Source: Bigelowiella natans CCMP2755 (taxonomy: Eukaryota; Protista; Cercozoa). Taken from it: a DNA stretch of 64,000 nucleotides. Made by a program: the position numbers and the translations under genes. The notes beneath the pieces were generated by a model. That model saw only the letters and a list, made by a program, of their open reading frames with translations, searched no databases and was not told where the DNA came from. Positions 4,782-28,806 of the stretch are shown one piece after another; positions within the stretch are counted from its first letter, which is position 1; each line of letters begins with the position of its first letter. The stretch is taken from positions 33,079-97,078 of the forward strand of contig ADNK01000966.1 of the NCBI GenBank assembly GCA_000320545.1. Reading direction: 5' to 3'.

Positions 4782-7163
4782 TCACACTTTCGTTTTCAAA
4801 CGCTCCATTAATATTTTAAGGTTACTAGAGTTGTATCTGTCAGGCTCAGCCGATTCAAAATTCTTAATCAGATTGTAAATATCCTTGTACAATTGCTCCT
4901 TATTCTCAATGAGTTTCATTAAGAAGCCCTGGACGGCCTCCTTGCATTCAGAAGGGCTCTCAGGAAATACCATCTTTAAAAATCCAAAGAACTTTGGAGC
5001 CTTTTGTGAGCCCTCCGTCTTCCGCAATAGTGCGGCACATGCTATATCGCATGTAGTTTCGTCGAGGAAAAACCGCTCTAATACTGATGATGCCCATTGA
5101 CACCTTTGAACATCTAGAAACTCTACCAGGACGTATCTGATCAATCCCTGAAGAACAGAGCTCCAATCGTTCTTGGATGATTCTTCGAACTTGCGAACCT
5201 TTAAGATACTTGCACTTAGGAGCTGGACATGCACTTCGTCGAGATTTTTATTCTTGTTCTCTAGGAGATCCGCGACAACGGCGTTGGCAATGCCTAATGC
5301 TCTCTGGACCGGGAATGATCCGAGACCCGCTACGGCGCTGTCAGGCTGGCCTGTCCCACACAAATACTTTTGTATATCCTCCGACACAAGCTTCATTTGT
5401 GACATGAACATCGCGATAATCCAGGATGCGTTCGCTTTCTTTCCGGGCAGGCAATCTGCCATCCAGTATATGCAACCCCGAAGAACCATTGGCGATGCCT
5501 TCTTCAAAATTCCTTCCATTATCTCCTGAAGCTGGGCCTTTTGTTCCTCTTGTTGAATAGAAGTTATCGACGCGCACATTACGTGGAAGATTCCTGCTTG
5601 GATTCCCCACCAAGGGTCCTCTAACAATTTTTGGAGCTCCCCCAACATGTTGAGCGATAGATTTGGAGACTCTTTGCACAAGCTCGCCAGAATTAACAAC
5701 GCATGAGTGCGCAACTGTTTTGAGGGAGAACGAAGCCCAAAAGTCACATAAAAGAAGTACACGTCTTGCAGCTCCTTTGAGTGGTATGCGGTTCGATTGG
5801 ACAAGAGAGCAAAACATTGAACTAATGCCGCATTTTCCAAATCCTCTTTCAGAATTTTTAACAGGGCAAGCATATCAGAATTCGAGAAGCAGAACGAAGT
5901 CATTATATCTACTATATCTTCCCTTTTGTTCGGCAAGGTTTTGAAAAGTATGATGACTTTCGGTAACATGTAGTCTTGGAACAGAGTGGCAGTTTCGCCT
6001 AATTTAAGAAACAAAACAAATAGGATTCAGTTCTACGACCAATTTCGACATTATCAGCATCAAAATTTACCTGAATCAATGTCACCACATTTTCTTGCGA
6101 AAGTTGTAGTAAAATCTAACACGAAACTCGTGGCTTTCGAAGGAGCTCCAGCATATGCCTTGCAGAGAATTCCACTTAATTTCCAAAACTGCTTCGGTTC
6201 TTCCATGGCAATCGACACACACTGGTCTAGCGCACTATCCAATGCGCTAAAAACTTCGATTACTTCTTTGGGTTTTTTACTCGAGATCGCGTCGCAGAAT
6301 TCGATAAACGTCATTGATTGTTTCTCTTCCATATTCAATACTTTGTGGACGATCGGATCAAGGACTTTCGGTATCGTAACTTTGACACCCGTATTGGATA
6401 TGTCAGAGGTTATTGTCGAAGCCTTCCGAAGTGCCGAGGATCCTGTGTTCGACACGTTGGCCATTCTTTGAGTTCCTCCTCTCAATTGCGCCATTCCTTC
6501 AGTAATGGGTTTCACGTTTACAGTTTTTAAGAACTGAATTTGTGGTTGCTTAAAGTCATCATGCTGAACTTGCCGGGTCGCAACACGTAACATTCGTTGT
6601 GCCATCATCCTATGTTTTGATGTGTGTGTGTATCTTTCTCTATCTTTCATCCGGTCTTGTCGCAGCTGCATTTGGTGCTGGTCCAGCGCATCTTTCGCGT
6701 ATCCGGTGTTCGTCAGCTGGTCGTTTTCTTCGGTTGCCACAGGACCCTTCATTGTATCTTTAACAATCCTACTTGCGGTTGGCTTTGCATAGGCTGGGGT
6801 GTCTTCAATCAGCGTTTCAGTAGGTGCAATACTTCGTTTGGTGAGATGAGCATACAGTTTCTCAATCATCTGTACAGCTGCCATAGCCTGGCAATGCAGG
6901 ACGGCATGGGCGAGATCTTCAAGTATAGGGATTTCTCGTTTCTTGAAAATTTTCAATAGCTGCTGCCAATTGTCTTTCCGCCTTGAAATTGCCGTCCCGT
7001 TGTCGAAGGAGTGCATGTTTATCTCATTCGTGTATTCCTTAAAGCGAGAGAGAATTTCTGCAACAAGAAATCCATTTGCGAAATCCCTTCTGACGTTCCG
7101 GACGGAATAGGTTAGATCCAAACTCTGGATCCATCTGAGGATCTCCCTGGACGGTACGCTCAT
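4782..7163 (-). CDS. SPATA4/SPEF1-like calponin-homology (CH_2) microtubule-binding protein with long helical C-terminal region, ~769 aa, 2 exons
   Basis: N-terminus REILRWIQSLDLTYSVRNVRRDFANGFLVAEILSR...DNWQQL matches the SPATA4/SPEF1 CH domain. One phase-1 GT-AG intron (5999-6070) joins ORFs 6060..7163 and 4782..6014. Confidence 0.85.
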
Positions 7164-8315
7164 GTCTTTCTGTCCTCTCGCCGTCGGGCTGTGATTCCTT
7201 GCAGGTCGGGGGGGGATACGAAGTTGGGATGTGTTATGTACAGATATATTGTTGATGTTTTGCCGATATATTCTTGTCTATCTTGTCACGTTTCAGAGTC
7301 TCTGCAGTAGATAATCGGGTAAGAAGCGTTACTTTAGTAACAACGGCGATGATGAGCCTGACAACAACCTCTACCGTTTTCCTGTCTGCGTTCTTTCTCG
7401 GCATTATTGGCTATTTTTTTTTGCGTGCAATGAAAAACGACTTTCTCTGTTTGTTGTCGCAGTTTATAACTATCCTACGATTCTTCCCACTTCTTTTGCG
7501 AAATCGCAAGATGAATTAAATGATTGTCGCAGAAGCTAAATCTCAAATGTTTCGTAACAAATGCCTCCGTTCCCATCTCTGCGCCAGCTTGGCAGATAAA
7601 GCAGCGCGTCCCATGATCCTTTCAACCGCTCCAACGAGACACTTTTTTCTTTCTTTCTTTCTGATGGCCGCAATTTTTTTCCCCCATCGTGTCCGATGAT
7701 CTCTCCAACCAGCCAATTATTATAGACAACGTAATACACATCATAGTATACATAATGTGTCACGCACTGTGTGTCCATTGCAATGATCCATTGGAATCAC
7801 TTCGTAATTTCACTTTGCTGGTCAATATTTCACGCCCGCCGCCGCTGCTCACTTGTGTTATGCTCGTTGTGCAGCTGATATCACCAGCTAAACGGAGCAT
7901 GCACCACAAGTCTCCTTTTATTGTGCATGTCTGTGTTTGTCAAACAAATGAGCTTGGTGAAAGAGCACATAGCTTGAGCCTGCAGGCTGTACGCTCACTG
8001 CATGGGCACGCAGTCGCAATTCGTTCGCATTGTGCAACATACACCATTCTAGCACAAAGCGATAGCATCATTGCGATGCACTCGGCTGTCAGTCGCACAT
8101 GCACGACATGGCCGATAATCATCGCCAAGCTAGCTTCATCTACTTATGCTATTTCCACTTCACCCATTACATGCTTAAAATTGTCATCTATAACTAAACA
8201 CAATTTCGACGCCTAGTTATTTATTATGAAGAAAGGTCATATCATTTTTAACTTCCTCCTTCAAATCACTAGAACAAATCCCACATGGTCAGACTCACTA
8301 GATCACTCAATGCCA

Positions 8316-9404
8316 TCATTGCTTCTTCTCATAAACGGAATCTACCACAATTGTCGTGAATTTTTCTTGCCGATCACGAGCTGAATCGTACAAAATTTCC
8401 AATTCTCGAACGATCTCCGCGAAAACAGGTCGCTCGAAAGGGGACATATGCCAGCACCTTTCAATAAGCTTGGCGTATTTTTGCACCTGAAGAACACAGA
8501 CACTGTACGTGACGGATCCTACCAAACCATTCAATAGCTTCTATGACATCATCCATTCGAAACACAAGTACCATCGACGGCATAACACAGGTATTTTTTG
8601 TAAGTGCGGCCACTTTGACTTTATGGTATTACTTCCAAATTCGGGTGCGATAGGGGAAGGTTTGGTCGATGGTTGGACAGGACAGCCTCTCGAATATCCG
8701 CACTCCTCATTCCATGGTAAGGCATCTTCCGTGTCAGGATCTCCCACATCACATAGCCAAAGCTGAATACATCTACCGCAAAGCCGTACATGCTCAGCTT
8801 TCGCTGTGGCCGTCTCTTTGCATCTGCTGCTGCGCCTGTGCGCGGCTTGATCAGACTTTGGAGTAGTTCCGGAGCCTGTAATTGTTGTTGTTGTTGTTCT
8901 TGATGATGATGATGATAATGCTGGTGAGGTTGATGGGGATAATTATGGGGAGAAACTATCAGAGAAGTCATGTCGCTATTCAGAAAGACTGCTTGCTGCT
9001 AGTGCTACTGCTGCCTTCTGTGGTACCATGTATGCGATGGTGCCAACAACGCCTGTCAACATCGAGTCATCATCCTCCTTTTTCAATGAAGAGGAAAACG
9101 ATTGTATTAATCACCAGAAAGGTCGAAAATTCAGCTGTAATAACTGTATTTTATTGTGCCATCAAATATCTTCCATTTAGGTCATGGTCAACAACTATTG
9201 GCTGCACGAAGGTGGTGGCTTCGGAAAGAAACAGATGAATGAAATCGCTACTATTGTATGTGTAGTAACGTGTGTGTGGATAGGTCGTATTACCGGCAAA
9301 ACGTCTTGCTCAAAAGCGTGGAAGCATTGATTACCCATCAGCAATCGAGATGATCCAAAATCACATACCTGTGGAAGGTAGCAGAATATGGTCTCTCTCT
9401 ATCT

Positions 9405-9456
<52 letters not shown>

Positions 9457-9481
9457 AATAAATAATTCATTTTATGTGTGC

Positions 9482-9516
<35 letters not shown>

Positions 9517-10537
9517 CGTAGTCATACAGTCCGACAGCACTTCCAAACAAAATACTGTCTCACCATCACCATCGTCATCAAAATATCTCTCCTTTTAGCA
9601 TAATAATGTGTGACCTTGACGATGTATTCCGACTTCGACTTGTGAACGAGGAGATTCATGGTCTTGAGGTCTCTATGAAGTATGTTCTGCTCGTGTGCAA
9701 AGCACATTCCACGAGCCGCGTCCAATGCGAACTAAGATGAGAATAAACAGATGATGATGATAACGAAAGCGATTATGGTAACGGTACTACAGTAAAACTA
9801 GCAAACAAATGCTATCCTCCTGGGATGTATTGCTTGACAGAAACGAGAATCATAAGCTTTCCTCTCCCCGTCTCTCATTTTTTGCTTTTGGCCGTGTTCA
9901 TCATTCGTTCGCTCCGGTAAGTGCGCCCTCTTCCCCAACCCTTGAGCAACGGAAAATCTACTCCCCAGTGTCATCATCGCGACGGCGATCAATGAGAATA
10001 TAATGTATATATATATATATATATATATTATCAATATGTATACATATATCGCCGACAATATCAACCCTGAAACCCCATCAAAACAACATTCGCAGCTTTT
10101 TACTGCTCGTACTAATACTTTCAGCCTTGTCGCCCAAGAGAGATCCACAGATTTTGACTTGAGGACGTGCAAGAGGGACTATCAATATCACCATACCGAA
10201 AACAAGCCACAGAACAAAACAGAAATGCGGTCAACATTTCTTCATATAGTGCCCGATGCATGCATGTATCTGCCAGTAGTATGGGGGTCGCGTCCATTGG
10301 GGGGGGGGGGGGGGGTTAGGAAAAGAAAAAAGAGAACGAATGCAAATGAGATATACCTTATGATTACAATATTCGAACACGATGAAGAAGTCTGGAGGGG
10401 AGAGGCACACGCCAAGAAATTTGACAATATTCGGGTGGTGTAGCTGACAGTAGAGAAAAGCTTCCTTGCTGTGTAGGTTGGGAGGGAGTGGGAGGGTGGG
10501 GAGGGTGGGGGCAGTTGAATGTTGGTTGAAAAGAACG

Positions 10538-10595
<58 letters not shown>

Positions 10596-13345
10596 GAGCA
10601 CAATAGTAATCTAACGATAGAGAATAGCATATGAAGCCTCTTCTCAGCTAGACGTTTGCTACCTGAAATCCAGCACCGTTTCGAGGGTGAAAGGTTTCAA
10701 ATCATAGCTTTTCAGTACTACTGGCGTCCCTCGGTACGAAGTCCGGAATATGCGTGATGTGGCCCTGAGATAGTTCATGCACGACGCATGGATGCTGAGA
10801 GATCAATCATTTACTTGTTCGAGCTACAAAGCAACACAAAAGTCACACCGTCTCTGCATCGATGGGGGCAGCGCTACACTACACAACAGGTCTTATCAAC
10901 AGTCGGCACCAACGTATATACGCGTCGGCGGGATACAACAACTTGTGGAGGAGGGAAAAGGGGGCATTCCGATGATGATCTGCGTTGGTGGTACCGACCC
11001 TGATGCTACGGCGAAGTGCCTTTGGTCTAAAGAGGTGAAGTCGAGAATGGGGACTTGAGCACGCAGAGCCCCGTGGATTTCAGCTTGTGTCGCGTTCGGC
11101 ATGAAGTTCAAGAACGACTCCTTCCTCCGCCCGAGCCTACGAGATCAAAGACATGAAGCGGAAGAACGGAGATTATTGCGAAACCCAGCCTACAAAAGTA
11201 CAGCGCGAAATGTACTGCTACTGTTACTGCGTCAGCAGTAGCAGCAGCAGCAACAGAAGAAGACGGAGCATCACAAAACACCCACTGACCCTTTGATTTG
11301 GTCCCCAATCGTCCGCCAAAATTGAGAATCAGATAAGAGCACAAAGTACAGCAAAAACGGGAATACGAGGAAATACACGCCGTCTGCTAGCCAACGTATC
11401 ATGAATATTGTCGTAGGGCCGCTGCTGGTGGTGGTACTGCTGTCGATTCCCAGCTCTCGGTTCATCATCTCCTCCCTTTCGGATAAGATGTAAAGGATCT
11501 GCTGCATGATCAGATACCCTAGAATGGAGCAGATGGCGGAGATAAAGAAGAAAGAAGAGAGGAAAGGAGACGAAAGAAAAAAACAATAAATCAACGGGAT
11601 CGTTTGAGATCTGAAGAACGGATATTCGTTAGCAGCTCCATGAAACACTATGGGTCATCATCGCATATTGCTACGCTTTATATCACCATACCCATGAATA
11701 CGGCGAAAGCGACCCCAAATCTGCCTGAGATTTTACGCGAGGAGAGCAAAGCATACAGGCAAATGACGATCCACACTGCGGTGAGGAATATGTCCGTCCC
11801 CGCGATGAACACAATGGCCCATCTGTAGCTGGAGAAGTAATAGCAACACCGCGAGAAGACAACCACCACGCCGAGAAACAACGACCCGAACATGGATCTT
11901 GCGAATGCTGCATAACCCATTTCCCACTGAAAGAATTTTTGTATTTTGATGACGATACCAATCAGCAATTGAATGATGTGAATACGCAAAAAATGAAGTG
12001 GTTATTAGATTAAGGTGATACACACCCAAACACATCCCTTGTTTCATCAACATAATCACATGATCGCGTATGATATTACCTGCACCAAGTAGAGGGATAC
12101 AAAACCGCACAGGAAGACACGGAAACCCGCAGTTCCCGCTACAAGAGACAGCCGCAGCCAAAAAGCACAAGAAGCGATGATAGGCTGATAACAGAGAAAA
12201 AGTTACATATTTCAAGCATTTTTGGGAAATTCTCGCATTAACATAGAACGCATATTGGGATCAACAATCACCAGGACCGTATCATGATTAATGCTGGAGT
12301 CTTATTCATTCATACGTAGCTGCAGCAACTACCTGGCCATCGCTAAAATTCGACGCACAAAAGAGCGCGAGTACGAATTCCAAGAAATAAGCAACAAGAA
12401 CCCCGTACATGAAGTTGCGGTATGTCGGTAATGTCACCCATTTTGCTGCTGCATTCCGGTTCCTTCTTTGGCTGTTCGGGGAGACGTCTCCATCATTTCC
12501 ATTGCTACCTATTGAGGGCCTCCTACTCTGGCGTGCTACTACCGTTTCGAAACCGAGGATGCAAGCCATAAGAATCACCGGGATGAAGGCGAACGGACGC
12601 CATCGCCTGACACAAACACACACGCACGCACGCACACGCACGCACATGATCAGTTGTTTTTGCATTTTTCGCGGTCCATGCCCATATAGAACCTACCCGT
12701 GTGATCGCCACTTCCGGTGTGTCATTTCCGCAATGACTCTCTTGGACGCCGTTTCCTCCTCGACGCACGTTGACCTTTAGTGTTGCGTAAATATGCCTTT
12801 TATTCGAGTCATTTCTGAATTTGGAATTCACCCGTGGAACATGTTCTTACAAATCCTTATTCCTCGTCTTCTTACCGTGTTGTCGATGTGGAAGATTTGG
12901 AGGAGCATTTTCGGGTCGCCGGGGGAGGTGAACGAATGAACGCTGTAAATATGCGCCACCCCTTAGTTTTGTGTTTACGAGGAGAACCTGACAACGATGG
13001 TTCGGATGCTGCAAGGTCTACTGTCCCGTTCTTCTTCGTCGTCGCCCTGGTGGTTGTTGTCTCGTTGAGGCGGGAGTTTCTCCAAGAATCCGTATACTCA
13101 TCTGCCATGCGGCTGAATTTGAAAATCCCCCTCAGCATATGGGCACGATTTGCGCTTCCGTCCATGGGCAAGATGGAAGTGGTGATCAGTGATACCTAAA
13201 CATTTGATATGTTTACCAACCCATGCAGATTCGACGGAGGACACAAAAGTTTGCTCACCAGCAGCACGCTGACCACAGGGAGGCATCTTTGGCGAAGGGC
13301 GCTCACAGAGGCACGCGAATGGATGAGGGGTGTAGTCGCCATCAT
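8316..13345 (-). CDS. Signal peptide + seven-transmembrane domain + tyrosine-kinase-like (TKL) kinase fusion, multi-exon
   Basis: Hand splicing gives signal peptide MMATTP...LPVVSVLL|VSLITTSILP, an S/T-rich ectodomain and seven hydrophobic helices ending LLYFVLLSDSQFWR. The kinase follows: VASG|ATSRIF, TPVVLK, LHHPNIVKFLGVC, HRDLKTMN, CDFG, GTIAYM|APE, DVFSFG, CWHMSPFERP. Confidence 0.88.
9392..9520. repeat. Compound intronic microsatellite (CT)n(CA)n...(GT)n
   Basis: Directly visible, inside a kinase-domain intron of the 7TM-TKL gene. Confidence 0.95.
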
Positions 13346-14516
13346 CTACGCGTGCTCCAGCAGCAGTTGCTCGGAGCTCCTCCTTCCCCCTTTCGGTTGT
13401 GCTGTGTGGGTTGTTGATCCGGCTGGTAATTCAGACGACAGTCGTCGTCCTCCCCGTCATACTCTAGTTGGGATCTATCTACTGGGGAATACTTCTGCTT
13501 CTATCGGGTCAATTCGGGCCCAAATTCGACCTATTTCTCACAAATTAGTCATCATCTTTTGGAATTTCGCCGAAGGCAGCAGCCCGGTGGAAGTTCCATC
13601 GCTTCTTTTCCAAAAAAGCAGAGGAAATCCGGGTCGGCGGCTTGGAGCTGAGCAGCTGGTTTGAGAAAGATCAGTCCTTCTCGGCTTTTTGGTAGTCCTT
13701 CTCGGCTACATAGAGGCACATCATCATGACACTCACTGATTTCGTAGCATTTTAGGGTTCTCATTTTCAGACCCAGTTTTGAAACTAAAAGAAATCTTGG
13801 GCAGGGGATCCATACTGAAAAAACGTTGAAGAGGCATTATAATTAGTTTAATGCATGACAATTCTAATGATCTTTGTACGGTGAATCTCTTTTGAAGGAT
13901 GGGACTCGAGTTTTGTTTTGTTGTGCGTGAAATTAATTTTAAGTCGTAAGGGAGAAATATACTCTATTTTTGAGTTTGAGGGACCTTCCCGCTCCCACTT
14001 TTAGTGAAGGTCTCCCGTCTCCCACCAAAATTGTCGCGCGGTTCTTCTTTCTTCTCAGCATCTCTCCCCATCCATCCTCTGATCAAATCAACTCGACAAA
14101 GGACGTATTTCAATTATTTTTAACTTTAGGAAGGGATTGAGGGAGAAGGACGGGCGATTTTCGCTTTTGAGGCCTGAGTGCTTTGCTTACACTGCAAATC
14201 TTTCTGAAGAAGACCACGATTGCGTGATCCAAGAAAATTTGAGATTCTCCCCTTTTAGTTAAAGCTTCATCTGCCGCGCGACGAGTGCGAGGTAGTCTAT
14301 GAAAATAATTAGTTCCGTAGTGATAATAGGATCCATATTGTGACTAATTATGTGAAAATGAACGAAAGAGGTTATGGTTGAATGGTCTTCGGAAAGAAAT
14401 TCATCCTTAATATGCAAGTGTCTTCCCATTGCATTCTTCCTCCTCTATAGCCTAGCGAGACCCGTCTCCTTTTACTTACGACCTTTGTATCCCATCCTAC
14501 TTATTCAGAAGCTTGC

Positions 14517-16586
14517 ATGACCTCGGATAAGGTTGCAGACCGGGAAGTGGACATATCTCTTGTGGCAAATCGATTTGCTTGCGTCTACTATGAGGAACTC
14601 CATAAAGACCCGAAGAGAACTCATCAGTTTTACACGAGTGATTCAAGGTTCACAAGGAGGACTGAGAATGAGGATTTGAAGATCGCCAAGGGGCAGAAGG
14701 TGATGCATTTACAAACTAGAATTTGGAAGCATCGGTCTTCAGAGGCGTTTCTCATTTTTGTCTTGTTCGCACCAAAATCATAACATGGGAATCTGTTGTA
14801 GGAGATTTACAAGATCCTAGAGACTACCAGGTTTGTACACACATAAAAATCACGAAAACGATAATTGTGACGAAAACGATAATTGTGGTTTTTTTTAACC
14901 GAAATCACTTCGACGGCTTACATGAATCATTAAAAAAAATTCTCATTTATTTGGACGATTCTCTCAGTTACGACAAGATTCATGTCGACCATGTTGATTC
15001 TCAAGAGGCGCCTAACAATGGAGTGCTGATTATTGTGACCGGTACTTCCAATTGTTCAAGTTGTCTGAATTAATTACTGAGATCTGCTAATTTTTATGTG
15101 ACAGGTCAAATGAAACGGAGAGAATGCCCGTACATGGAGGATTTCGTACAGACATTCTTCCTCGGCTCTCAGGAAAGACTGAATGATGGTAAGACTGAAT
15201 GATGGCAGTGCCTTACATATGTACTTAAATACGTACTAGAGACACTTTAGTGGAGCTGCGGACGATTTAGTAAAGAGCAAAATGAGGAGAATTACTTTGA
15301 AGAACTCAGGGATGTTATGAATGGTATTTCAGGTAAACCAAGGTTCTATGTCTGCAACGATATGCTGCAATTTATCTCTCGCGAGAAGCACAGTGTGAAG
15401 AAACCTTCCCAGGAAGTCAAGGAGCTTGCCTCTGGCAAAACCAATGAAGCAACGCAAAAGAAGGCTAGCAGCGCCCCTGAAGTTGCTCCAAAGGCGGAAA
15501 ATACTGAACCCAAGAAGGAGCAGCAACAGCAAGCGCATCAGGTGGAGCTCGAATATAAGGTGAAAGCCGAGGTCGTAGCTAATGAAAAGAAGGGACCACA
15601 AGTGAAGCGCAGTGCAGTCAAGAACAAGAAAGGGAAGAAAGCAGCAAAAGGAGCATCTGAAGAAAATTCTGTGCCATCTGAGAGCACACCCGAAGTGAAC
15701 AAGAGTACTGAAACTTCCACCGTGAAGAAGAATGCTCAGAAAGTTCAGAATATCACTTCCAACGGCCATGCAGAGGAATCTGGAACTGAAGTTGGTGCAG
15801 GGGAATCAAAGGCAGCAAACGAGGTTTCAGCACCAGGCAAAGGAGCTGGCTGGAAAACTTGGGCTGAACGTTTTAAATCTGCCGTGCCTCAGATTGAACC
15901 ATCTGCTGCTGCTCTCCAGGATGGGCAAACGAAAGCGAGTGCCTCGGAAAAAACAACAAAAACTTCAGACAAACAGAACAACGAAGCAAGAAAACTTGAA
16001 GAAAGCGGTGTGAGTCCAGCGGAGGGACAATCTGGGCCTTCGATCGCAACAAGAGGTAGAGGCAAAAAAGGTGGCCGTGGCGGGAAATCAGGGCGCTATA
16101 TTTACAACGATCCCGAGCAGATTGCTAAGACTTTGTACGTCAACAATCTTCCTTCGTGCGACAAAGCTGATATTGAGGCGAAATTCGGCGAGTTTGGAAA
16201 AATCGTGAGCATTGAGCGTCCTCATCTTGTTTACTGCTTCGTGCACTACCAGGAGAGAGAAGCTGTGGAGGCTGCTCTCAAGGCACGGCCTATCAAACTC
16301 GGCGGAGAGGAACTCAAAGTGGATAAGAGGAGACCAAGTAACAGAAATAAGGGGCCTGACGCAAGCCGATCCCGTGGTGGCAGAGCAAGAGGCGGGAGGT
16401 ATCGTCATGCTGGAAGGGGTGGCGACCCAAAGGTCCGATAAGAAATATTTTGCACCTGATTCAAATATCACTAAAAAGCAGATTATTTTTCAAAATCTGA
16501 AGTACTTAAATCTGTTGTTGTTGTAGCGCTCGGACTCTGGCGTAAAGCGTGGGGGCAAAGGAAGGGGTGGGAGAGCTCATATGTGA
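14517..16586 (+). CDS. G3BP/Rasputin-like stress-granule protein (NTF2-like domain, acidic/low-complexity linker, RRM, RGG tail)
   Basis: NTF2-like VANRFACVYYEELHKDP...HQFYTSDS, HVDSQ...GVLIIVTG, FVQTFFL, FYVCNDML; RRM LYVNNLP...YCFVHY; RGG boxes. A 29-nt exon lies at 14802-14830. A last exon after an intron near 16433-16526 adds RSDSGVKRGGKGRGGRAHM*. Probable 5'-UTR intron at about 14292-14450. Confidence 0.9.
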
Positions 16587-27173: not shown

Positions 27174-28806
27174 ATGTATCGAAGCGATGGTCGAATTTGT
27201 GGTAGAGGCCGCAGGAAACCAAAGCGAGAGCTCCTAGTTAGTAGCAAAACATCAACTAAAAACCGCACCAGCTCCAGTACCGGGAGGACAAAACCACTTG
27301 CTCGTGGGACCAGAGTACGACCTGCTGCTCGTTCACTTACAGGAAACACATCCTCTACAAGAGGTCTCCATCGTCGCTTGGCCAACATGGGACTCGGTAT
27401 GACCAATACAAAATGGTGTATCTAGATTACTTATCTCTCGTTTGCACAGGTGATGAGGGAAAATCCCAAGGGAGCCGTAGCAGGCAAAAGGAGCGAAGTA
27501 GTGACAACAATAAGGAAATCCAATACACTGCAAACTCTATTATAGGAAAAGGCTCATTTGGAGTCGTTTACAAAGGTGGTACTCTTCGATCAGAAACTTG
27601 AAATGATATAATTTTACAAAATTTTATTCTCAGCAACTGTAACTCACACCGGAGAGATAGTTGCAATAAAGAAAGTCCTGCAAGACCGGAGATTCAAGGT
27701 TTTTAGAAAATTGAAATCACTTGAAACATTCAATAATTATATTTTTTTACAGAATCGAGAGCTTCAAATCATGAGATTGATGAAGCACTGCAATGTCGTA
27801 GAATTGAAACACAGTTTCTACGCGAAAGGGGACAAGGTTATTCCAGAAACCTATATATTTTCAGTCATTAATGTAACTTATTTCGAATTATTTTCAGGAC
27901 GAAATTTATCTGAATCTTGTCATGGAATATGTCCCCATTACTGTTCACCATCATCTGAAATCCTACTTCAAGATGAAGAAAAGCATCCCAATATTCCTAG
28001 TGAAACTTTACATGTACCAAATCAGTCGTGCACTAGCTTACATACATTCGCTAGAAATATGCCATCGAGATATAAAACCACATAACCTGTTAATGGATCC
28101 AAAGAGCCATGTCTGCAAGCTCATAGATTTCGGAAGCGCCAAAAAGCTGGTCGCGAAGCAACCAAACGTTTCATACATTTGCTCACGGTATTACCGGGCT
28201 CCAGAATTGGTTTTTGAGGCTACTGAGTATACAACAGCGATAGATGTTTGGTCGATGGGTTGTGTCATGGCAGAATTGTTCCTCGGTAAACCCATTTTCA
28301 TGGGCCAAACCCGTGATCATCAGCTCATTGAGATTGTGAAAATCTTGGGCACTCCTACAAGAACGCAGATAAAACAGATGAATCCCAACCATAAAATGTA
28401 CAAGTTTGCTCAAATAAAGGGACACTCATGGGCTACGGTAGAAACTCAGACTTACTTTTTTTGGATATCAACATGAACATGTATATTTTCCGCAGATTTT
28501 CCGAGGGAAGGTGGGCTCTTCAGCAGTAGACTTAATAGGTCAAATTTTGCAGTATGTACCCTCGAAGAGAATCACTGCTTTCGAAGCTATGTCCCACCCG
28601 TTCTTCGATGACCTGCGTAAATGCGATGCGTGTCTTGCTGACGGAAAGTCTCTACCTCCCTTGTTCAACTTCACTGATGCAGGTTTTCATAATTTACTTA
28701 ACTTTTTATTTATAGAAGATTAATTTTCATTTATTGAAAAACAGAGATGAAACAAGCAAGGTCATTGGGTTTGCTGGATAAGATGACACCTGAGGACCCT
28801 TCATGA
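27174..28806 (+). CDS. GSK3: Glycogen synthase kinase 3 / shaggy-like kinase with a basic N-terminal extension (start may be at 27005)
   Basis: [11 protein letters not shown]|[18 protein letters not shown]|[50 protein letters not shown]. Short GT-AG introns. Stop TGA at 28804-28806. Confidence 0.96.

Follow-up and report, generated by a model that had tools for sequence, protein, structure and literature searches.

Fusions of a seven-transmembrane (7TM) domain with a kinase on a single polypeptide have been published for Dictyostelium, oomycetes, amoebozoans, ciliates, choanoflagellates, and sponges (PMC1420674, PMC5784254, PMC6033456, PMC10463195, PMC12716839). Oomycetes carry them as "bigrams" that unite a GPCR (G-protein-coupled receptor) with a tyrosine kinase-like (TKL) kinase, with 17 GPCR-TKLs in Phytophthora infestans (e.g., PITG_07217 and PITG_02457) and SDRG_14605 as an example from Saprolegnia (PMC5784254, PMC6033456, PMC3019232), and a seven-helix domain that directly controls its own enzyme has been called unprecedented (PMC6033456). 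PMC5784254 reports no evidence for GPCR-TKLs beyond oomycetes and amoebozoans, and Table S1 of that study lists 2 GPCR-PIPKs and no GPCR-TKL for the chlorarachniophyte Bigelowiella natans. Here, we analyze a gene on the minus strand (13345 to 8316) of a 64,000-nt stretch of the B. natans CCMP2755 genome (contig ADNK01000966.1, positions 33,079 to 97,078; hereafter the window), which encodes a predicted seven-helix membrane domain followed by a TKL kinase. We consider it somewhat more likely than not, at a probability of roughly 55%, that this 798-aa protein is a chlorarachniophyte member of the oomycete-type GPCR-TKL family that acts as a one-piece receptor kinase.

The fusion architecture as such is not new; what appears to be new is the rhizarian occurrence of a likely member of the oomycete-type family. 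A preliminary description of the locus had regarded these fusions as known mainly from oomycetes and as largely uncharacterized. The second half of that view stands, but the published fusions from amoebozoans, ciliates, choanoflagellates, and sponges contradict the first, and its suggestion that a non-oomycete host would extend the architecture to another lineage is borne out by B. natans together with relatives in Amorphochlora and Chlorarachnion. A literature search whose reach excluded most subscription papers found no published report of this 7TM-TKL family in Rhizaria, and rhizarian names are absent from the supplements of PMC10463195.

The fusion gene has 16 exons and 15 introns of 63–387 nt (mean 176), all with GT-AG borders, and the joined exons form a single frame of 2397 nt with one stop codon. 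Both the intron sizes and the GC content are in keeping with B. natans. A TAG lies in frame directly 5' of the start codon, and therefore no upstream extension of the frame is possible; the 5' untranslated region (UTR) contains a separate upstream open reading frame (ORF) of 9 codons at 13460-13431. This gene model confirms the earlier observation that the ORF fragments of the locus join by GT-AG splicing into one chain, with all motifs named at the time lying in one frame where they had been placed.

Twenty public sequencing runs contain 28–50% of the region's words, which is about the share of exons, and we compared seven contig runs and one raw-read run (X21) with the gene. None of these runs is recorded as RNA, so that their RNA nature is a guess and splice joints serve as the evidence of splicing; contigs, moreover, are assemblies and not single molecules. 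Joints for 13 of the 15 introns appear in the contigs, 12 of them (introns 1 and 7 included) in all seven contig runs and that of intron 15 in all three runs compared over it. For introns 3 and 14, which have no listed joint, splicing was deduced from the two main contigs of run X1, whose lengths of 1891 and 790 nt are exactly those predicted by the model; a loose end at 9026 that reads into exon 15 in runs X9 and X15 further supports intron 14. The 1891-nt contig spans the 5' UTR and all seven helices and reaches into the kinase, the joint of intron 7 connects the exon of the last helix to the first kinase exon with 138 nt on its shorter side, and a database protein derived from a 2581-nt contig (P0006) is 100% identical to aa 175-798. 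The gene is thus real, spliced, and expressed, and it encodes one polypeptide.

Intron 11 stands out because a piece of it appears as a side contig (9702-9993, or 9702-9877 in one run) in six of the seven contig runs, reaching a considerable fraction of the main contig's depth, which suggests that this intron is frequently retained. Retention would give a 686-aa product that stops before the HRD and DFG motifs, and it may represent noise, given that noisy splicing has been reported for B. natans (PMC6142364), or a kinase-dead form. The database fragments P0004 and P0005 begin at M589 and M605, as expected from intron-11-retained transcripts. A contig of run X7 that extends from exon 7 into intron 6 (11519-11596) hints at retention there as well. 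Short low-complexity intron stretches at 9560-9600 and 11233-11258, likely a dispersed simple repeat, draw unrelated contigs and a false joint (9580-11236).

At its N-terminus, the protein has a leader with a hydrophobic core at aa 21-39, likely a signal peptide or signal anchor as judged by hydropathy as the sole criterion, and P0002, the orthologue from Amorphochlora amoebiformis, has a similar hydrophobic stretch. The following stalk contains two sequons (N73 and N85) and is not conserved in P0002 (shuffle z = -0.17). Hydropathy peaks at aa 167-185, 227-245, 255-288, 294-312, 326-344, 360-378, and 410-428 mark the membrane domain. The signal segment, the S/T-rich stretch with two sequons, and the seven hydrophobic helices proposed before therefore all reappear in this layout. 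Lysines and arginines number 8, 3, and 5 in loop 1, loop 5, and the tail after TM7 (9, 6, and 5 in P0002), and these basic segments fit with the predicted topology of an outside N-terminus and a cytosolic kinase. No DEP or other additional domain was found in the protein.

The kinase domain matches PF07714 (E 7.7e-44) better than PF00069 (E 2.1e-38), and its closest solved structure is CTR1 (E 1.4e-33), with MLK, ZAK, and DLK also among the best solved relatives; this Pfam ranking and these relatives assign it to the TKL group. Its best sequence and fold matches are Raf-like TKL kinases, among them Arabidopsis CTR1, MLK, and ZAK; these are soluble, whereas here one chain also includes the membrane domain. 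A separate receptor in the membrane controls CTR1. The residue set of active kinases is present (Lys, alphaC Glu, HRDxKxxN, DFG, and APE), with VVLK at the VAIK position. Ser/Thr specificity is predicted because the loop is of the HRDLK type (HRDLKxxN) and a threonine occupies position 657, following the criterion of PMC1420674. Dictyostelium 7TMK1 has no Ser/Thr at the position of PKA T201, which Thr657 occupies here, and was predicted to accept tyrosine (PMC1420674).

Searching with exon 15 recovered three proteins among 139 candidates: P0001 (94% identity over 344 aa), P0002 (721 aa; 48% identity over aa 204-798), and P0003 of Chlorarachnion reptans. The identity to P0002 amounts to 33% in the membrane domain (shuffle z = 31.7) and 66% in linker plus kinase, and nothing is detectable in the stalk. 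A profile search with the membrane region had four matches in 1.84 billion sequences, namely P0002, P0009 (likewise from A. amoebiformis and similar to P0003), a fragment 44% identical to the B. natans protein (P0010), and P0011 (684 aa, E 5.8e-4). Exon 7 as a query alone retrieved no homologue and no Atlas match; the P0002 membrane domain retrieved itself and one Atlas cluster at 0.75. P0006, P0002, P0003, P0009, and P0011 are each single fused proteins. Counting those found by these searches, chlorarachniophytes apparently have two ancient paralogues without expansion. In the second one (P0003/P0009), the activation segment of the kinase is interrupted by a long insert and TM7 is preceded by an additional hydrophobic stretch; P0009 has no signal segment.

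Scanning metagenome contigs once with the motif that ends TM7 of P0011 yielded 32 loci, 31 of them with the peptide in frame, of which two are 17-aa chance matches and 29 are family-like (some being duplicates); nine reading frames extend to the HRD motif. These metagenome 7TM-TKL genes (L001-L032) are aquatic, often intron-free, and of widely varying GC content (0.27-0.77), and their membrane domains match no Pfam family. A family profile built from 19 distinct metagenome membrane domains, with no chlorarachniophyte sequence included, aligns in order to aa 213-438 of the B. natans protein at 17.9 bits (best shuffle 6.2, with 294 of 300 shuffles scored), and hhalign connects the membrane domain to the metagenome family at 97.0% (E 9.6e-11, 193 columns). 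The motif adjoining TM7 is the best-conserved part of the membrane domain and is also the one on which the loci had been selected.

Turning to the oomycete GPCR-TKLs themselves, the order of seven helices and then a TKL kinase is the same, and the oomycete rows in Table S3b of PMC5784254 match by eye in four places. At the start of TM2, AARKIILP of the oomycete proteins corresponds to AAAKWVTLP in the B. natans protein and to MAARQILLP in P0003; the end of TM3 carries the same motif; the end of TM7 reads ADTEYWRG, or EDTKFWRG in Saprolegnia SDRG_14605, vs SDSQFWRT in the B. natans protein and EDTWFWRG in P0002; and the N-lobe of the kinase reads FTEETVAEFSQEA vs FTLETVLDFSKEA here. Table S3 of that study contains ADTEYWRG 37 times, ADTEFWRG 8 times, and QKSVS 74 times, counts that describe one large subgroup rather than every row, as some proteins are listed twice and long entries are partial. 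From the computed link to the metagenome family and the by-eye link to oomycetes, the membrane domain is likely homologous to that of oomycete GPCR-TKLs. The kinship would thereby be closer than the shared layout that had been pointed out before, and membrane domains that are homologous speak for an ancient fusion or a transfer, not for convergence.

Unlike the oomycete proteins, the one described here has a rhizarian host, a signal segment with a 120-aa stalk, 15 introns, and low overall identity to them. Furthermore, 8 of the 17 GPCR-TKLs from P. infestans have a DEP domain (PMC5784254), which is missing here, and the expansion in oomycetes contrasts with the two paralogues apparent in chlorarachniophytes. 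Dictyostelium 7TMK1 and 7TMK2 likewise have seven helices fused to a kinase, which in 7TMK1 is a TKL (PMC1420674), but their first 400 residues as given in Table S3b of PMC5784254 show by eye only a faint likeness at the end of TM7, while the TM2 and TM3 motifs are not evident. The same layout is found in choanoflagellate GPCR-TKL/K, choanoflagellate and sponge GPCR-TK (PMC12716839), and ciliate and amoebal GPCR-type kinases (PMC10463195). Their membrane domains are reported not to cluster with the oomycete ones and have been read as convergent.

The fold of the membrane domain was approached through a family member from the metagenomes, L023, whose model (20 aligned rows) shows seven long helices at high confidence (pLDDT 90.3, pTM 0.88), with the last one extending through the conserved motif after TM7. 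Foldseek returned nothing at E <= 0.001 for this model and had xanthorhodopsin (TM-score 0.60, E 0.04) and GPCRs (0.42-0.55) in its top rows. A wide structural search ranked microbial rhodopsins first at Z 12-14.6 (best: root-mean-square deviation 3.6 over 216 aligned residues) and GPCRs at Z 10-12, on a scale where values near 13-14 are common for helical bundles according to the tool's own warning. The modeled domain thus appears to be a generic seven-helix arrangement, equally close to microbial rhodopsins and GPCRs. Consequently, the "GPCR-like" label given earlier to this domain reaches no further than a general seven-helix fold: The class A motifs DRY, CWxP, and NPxxY are absent from the protein, which excludes class A only, and Pfam scans of 4 + 20 membrane domains gave no GPCR family and no consistent family in any of them. 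These scans, from which weak matches were filtered out and which included no TPRA1/CAND2 protein for direct comparison, also gave no match of that type, and sequence searches of the membrane domain against solved structures had 0 matches.

How might such a protein work? As a one-piece receptor kinase, it would sense a small ligand or membrane cue with the helix bundle itself, since the stalk outside shows no conservation and most relatives lack it. The TM7 helix would run on through the D-x-x-[FY]-W-R motif and reach into the linker; if it moved, or if the pairing of two receptors changed, this could switch on the attached kinase, which would then phosphorylate itself and cytosolic targets with no G protein needed. 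Within the membrane domain, conservation is strongest at the TM7/linker junction, a feature that direct coupling to the kinase would call for.

Several points weigh against this proposal. The ATP loop of the kinase is degenerate (ASGATSRI) and keeps one of three glycines, so that no GxGxxG motif is found, and just ahead of TM1 lies a strongly basic stretch, an unusual feature for a segment on the outside. The membrane part of the protein's own model (P0006, 7 aligned rows) has a pLDDT of mostly 35-50, whereas its kinase part is good; a fold search with this model returned kinases only, and the confident fold is that of the distant relative L023. When the selected TM7 motif is left out, the score of this protein against the family profile falls to 4.1 bits, under the best shuffle of 6.7, and only the relatives P0003 and P0010 remain above shuffle (15.1 and 14.4 bits). 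The second hhalign alignment (A4) contained P0010, and the link to named oomycete proteins was made by eye with no computed score. Finally, B. natans has more than 30 G-alpha subunits and 39 RGS proteins (PMC5784254, PMC3971589), which makes G-protein coupling plausible in this lineage, and no GPCR-kinase fusion has been characterized according to PMC12716839.

The strongest alternative, unlikely in our estimate, is that the protein is a true G-protein-coupled receptor whose attached kinase is activated by G proteins or provides built-in feedback or desensitization. Models of this kind are among those listed in PMC6033456 and PMC5784254, and they would suit both the seven-helix fold with its GPCR matches and the wealth of G-alpha and RGS genes. 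Against them stand the lack of DRY, NPxxY, and CWxP motifs and of any Pfam GPCR family, inner loops 2 and 3 of about 5 and 9 residues, and a predicted TM7 that continues straight without a turn into helix 8.

Rather improbable, too, is that the helix bundle merely anchors or scaffolds the kinase on an inner membrane such as the endoplasmic reticulum, Golgi, endosome, or outer plastid membrane. Several seven-helix families are located in the lysosome or Golgi (PMC12716839), and the protein has no conserved outer ligand domain. Its hydrophobic segment followed by a basic S/T-rich stretch is shared with P0002 and is reminiscent of chlorarachniophyte plastid-targeting leaders. Yet a single helix would suffice for anchoring, whereas distant lineages retain the entire bundle along with the motif after TM7, and a leader of this kind is lacking in P0009, P0011, and the aligned metagenome members.

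A weak or inactive kinase, which would turn the protein into a scaffold to which the intron-11-retained form adds a kinase-dead version, is suggested by the ATP loop, by VVLK, and by the 686-aa product ending before HRD. We regard this as quite improbable: the protein has K507, E525, D601, K603, N606, D622, and APE, all of them retained in P0001 and P0002, and in relatives the loop is degenerate in a similar way. The kinase had previously been called intact, and this applies to its K507, HRD, DFG, and APE motifs but does not extend to the glycine loop. A light-gated rhodopsin-kinase is very improbable, since its only attraction is the ranking of microbial rhodopsins as the best structural matches of the family model, and neither this protein nor P0002, P0003, or P0009 has a retinal-binding lysine in TM7, identity to rhodopsins is about 10%, and such Z scores are common for helical bundles. 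That these are two neighboring genes, or that the earlier description joined them wrongly, would be favored by the contigs being assemblies and by a raw-read run that covers the 3' end only (36 reads), but can be practically dismissed: every contig run has the joint across the TM7/kinase boundary, and five relatives or database copies are single fused proteins.

Where the family originated is a more tentative matter than its presence in B. natans. Oomycete GPCR-TKLs could be one branch of an ancient receptor-kinase family that goes back to the ancestor of stramenopiles, alveolates, and Rhizaria (SAR), is shared with rhizarians and many aquatic protists, and has its own seven-helix domain drive the kinase through a continuous TM7 helix without G proteins; we view this broader scenario as possible but doubtful. 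Chlorarachniophytes are reported to carry transferred "red" genes (PMC4074131), so that transfer from a stramenopile is conceivable as well. A tree by a quick method placed the four chlorarachniophyte proteins on one branch and, with 18 rows, a midpoint root, a long-branch warning, 13 of the 29 family-like loci, and no oomycete or outgroup rows, is uninformative on origin. Surprise is limited by the known architecture. The origin of the family would shift from an oomycete specialty to the SAR ancestor or to transfer between protists, and the metagenome loci would widen it well beyond oomycetes if their lineages are confirmed. In a free-living alga, a homologue whose paralogues seem to be few and whose motif between TM7 and kinase is conserved would also be simpler to test than the expanded family of oomycetes.

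The coordinates of all features are compiled in Table 1.

Table 1. Exons, domains, and motifs of the 7TM-TKL fusion gene (positions in the window).
Feature	Position	Strand	Remarks
5' UTR	13346..13530	-	transcribed to at least 13466-13530, from contig pieces
Exon 1	13345-13259	-	
Exon 2	13195-12876	-	
Exon 3	12774-12697	-	
Exon 4	12606-12333	-	
Exon 5	12184-12080	-	
Exon 6	11926-11692	-	
Exon 7	11518-11290	-	
Exon 8	11136-10999	-	
Exon 9	10764-10663	-	
Exon 10	10468-10357	-	
Exon 11	10178-10119	-	
Exon 12	9731-9615	-	
Exon 13	9368-9294	-	
Exon 14	9077-9027	-	
Exon 15	8875-8633	-	
Exon 16	8486-8316	-	
Likely signal peptide or anchor, with start codon, aa 1-44	13151..13345	-	exon 1 into first part of exon 2
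Low-complexity stalk, aa 45-165	12597..13150	-	exons 2-4; 27% S/T, 21% K/R
Predicted seven-helix membrane domain, aa 167-428	11334..12593	-	exons 4-7
TM1	12593-12537	-	
TM2	12413-12357	-	
TM3	about 12151-12080	-	
TM4	11911-11852	-	
TM5	11815-11747	-	
TM6	11719-11484	-	across intron 6
TM7	11396-11334	-	
Motif after TM7 (SDSQFWRT) and linker to kinase, aa 429-472	11049..11333	-	across intron 7; motif conserved
TKL kinase, aa 473-775	8388..11048	-	exons 8-16
K507	10712-10710	-	catalytic Lys
E525	10464-10462	-	alphaC Glu
Intron 11	9732..10118	-	longest intron (387 nt); 3' part appears as side contig
HRDLKTMN	9677-9654	-	
DFG	9362-9354	-	
TGVVGT	9056-9039	-	
APE	8875-8867	-	
Stop codon (8318-8316) and 3' UTR	8204..8318	-	poly(A)-like loose end at 8217

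Sequence variation was seen in a second strain, for which a weak comparison of one contig from one run gave 15 listed differences, 7 of them silent (expected share 0.24, p = 0.045); the 8 amino-acid changes listed are all confined to the stalk, the last outer loop, and the end of TM1.

Nothing seen here points to a functional connection between the fusion gene and its immediate neighbors. Downstream (4785-7163, minus strand) lie an ORF with a CH_2 domain (calponin homology of the sperm-protein type) and a HEAT/adaptin-like ORF, and upstream a divergently transcribed gene (14451-16441, plus strand) encodes an RRM and an RGG tail, which we take to be G3BP-like. A tblastn search found no paralogue of the fusion gene in the window, where the sole other kinase match is a gene at 27877-28476 (plus strand) that is presumably GSK3-like by its motifs.

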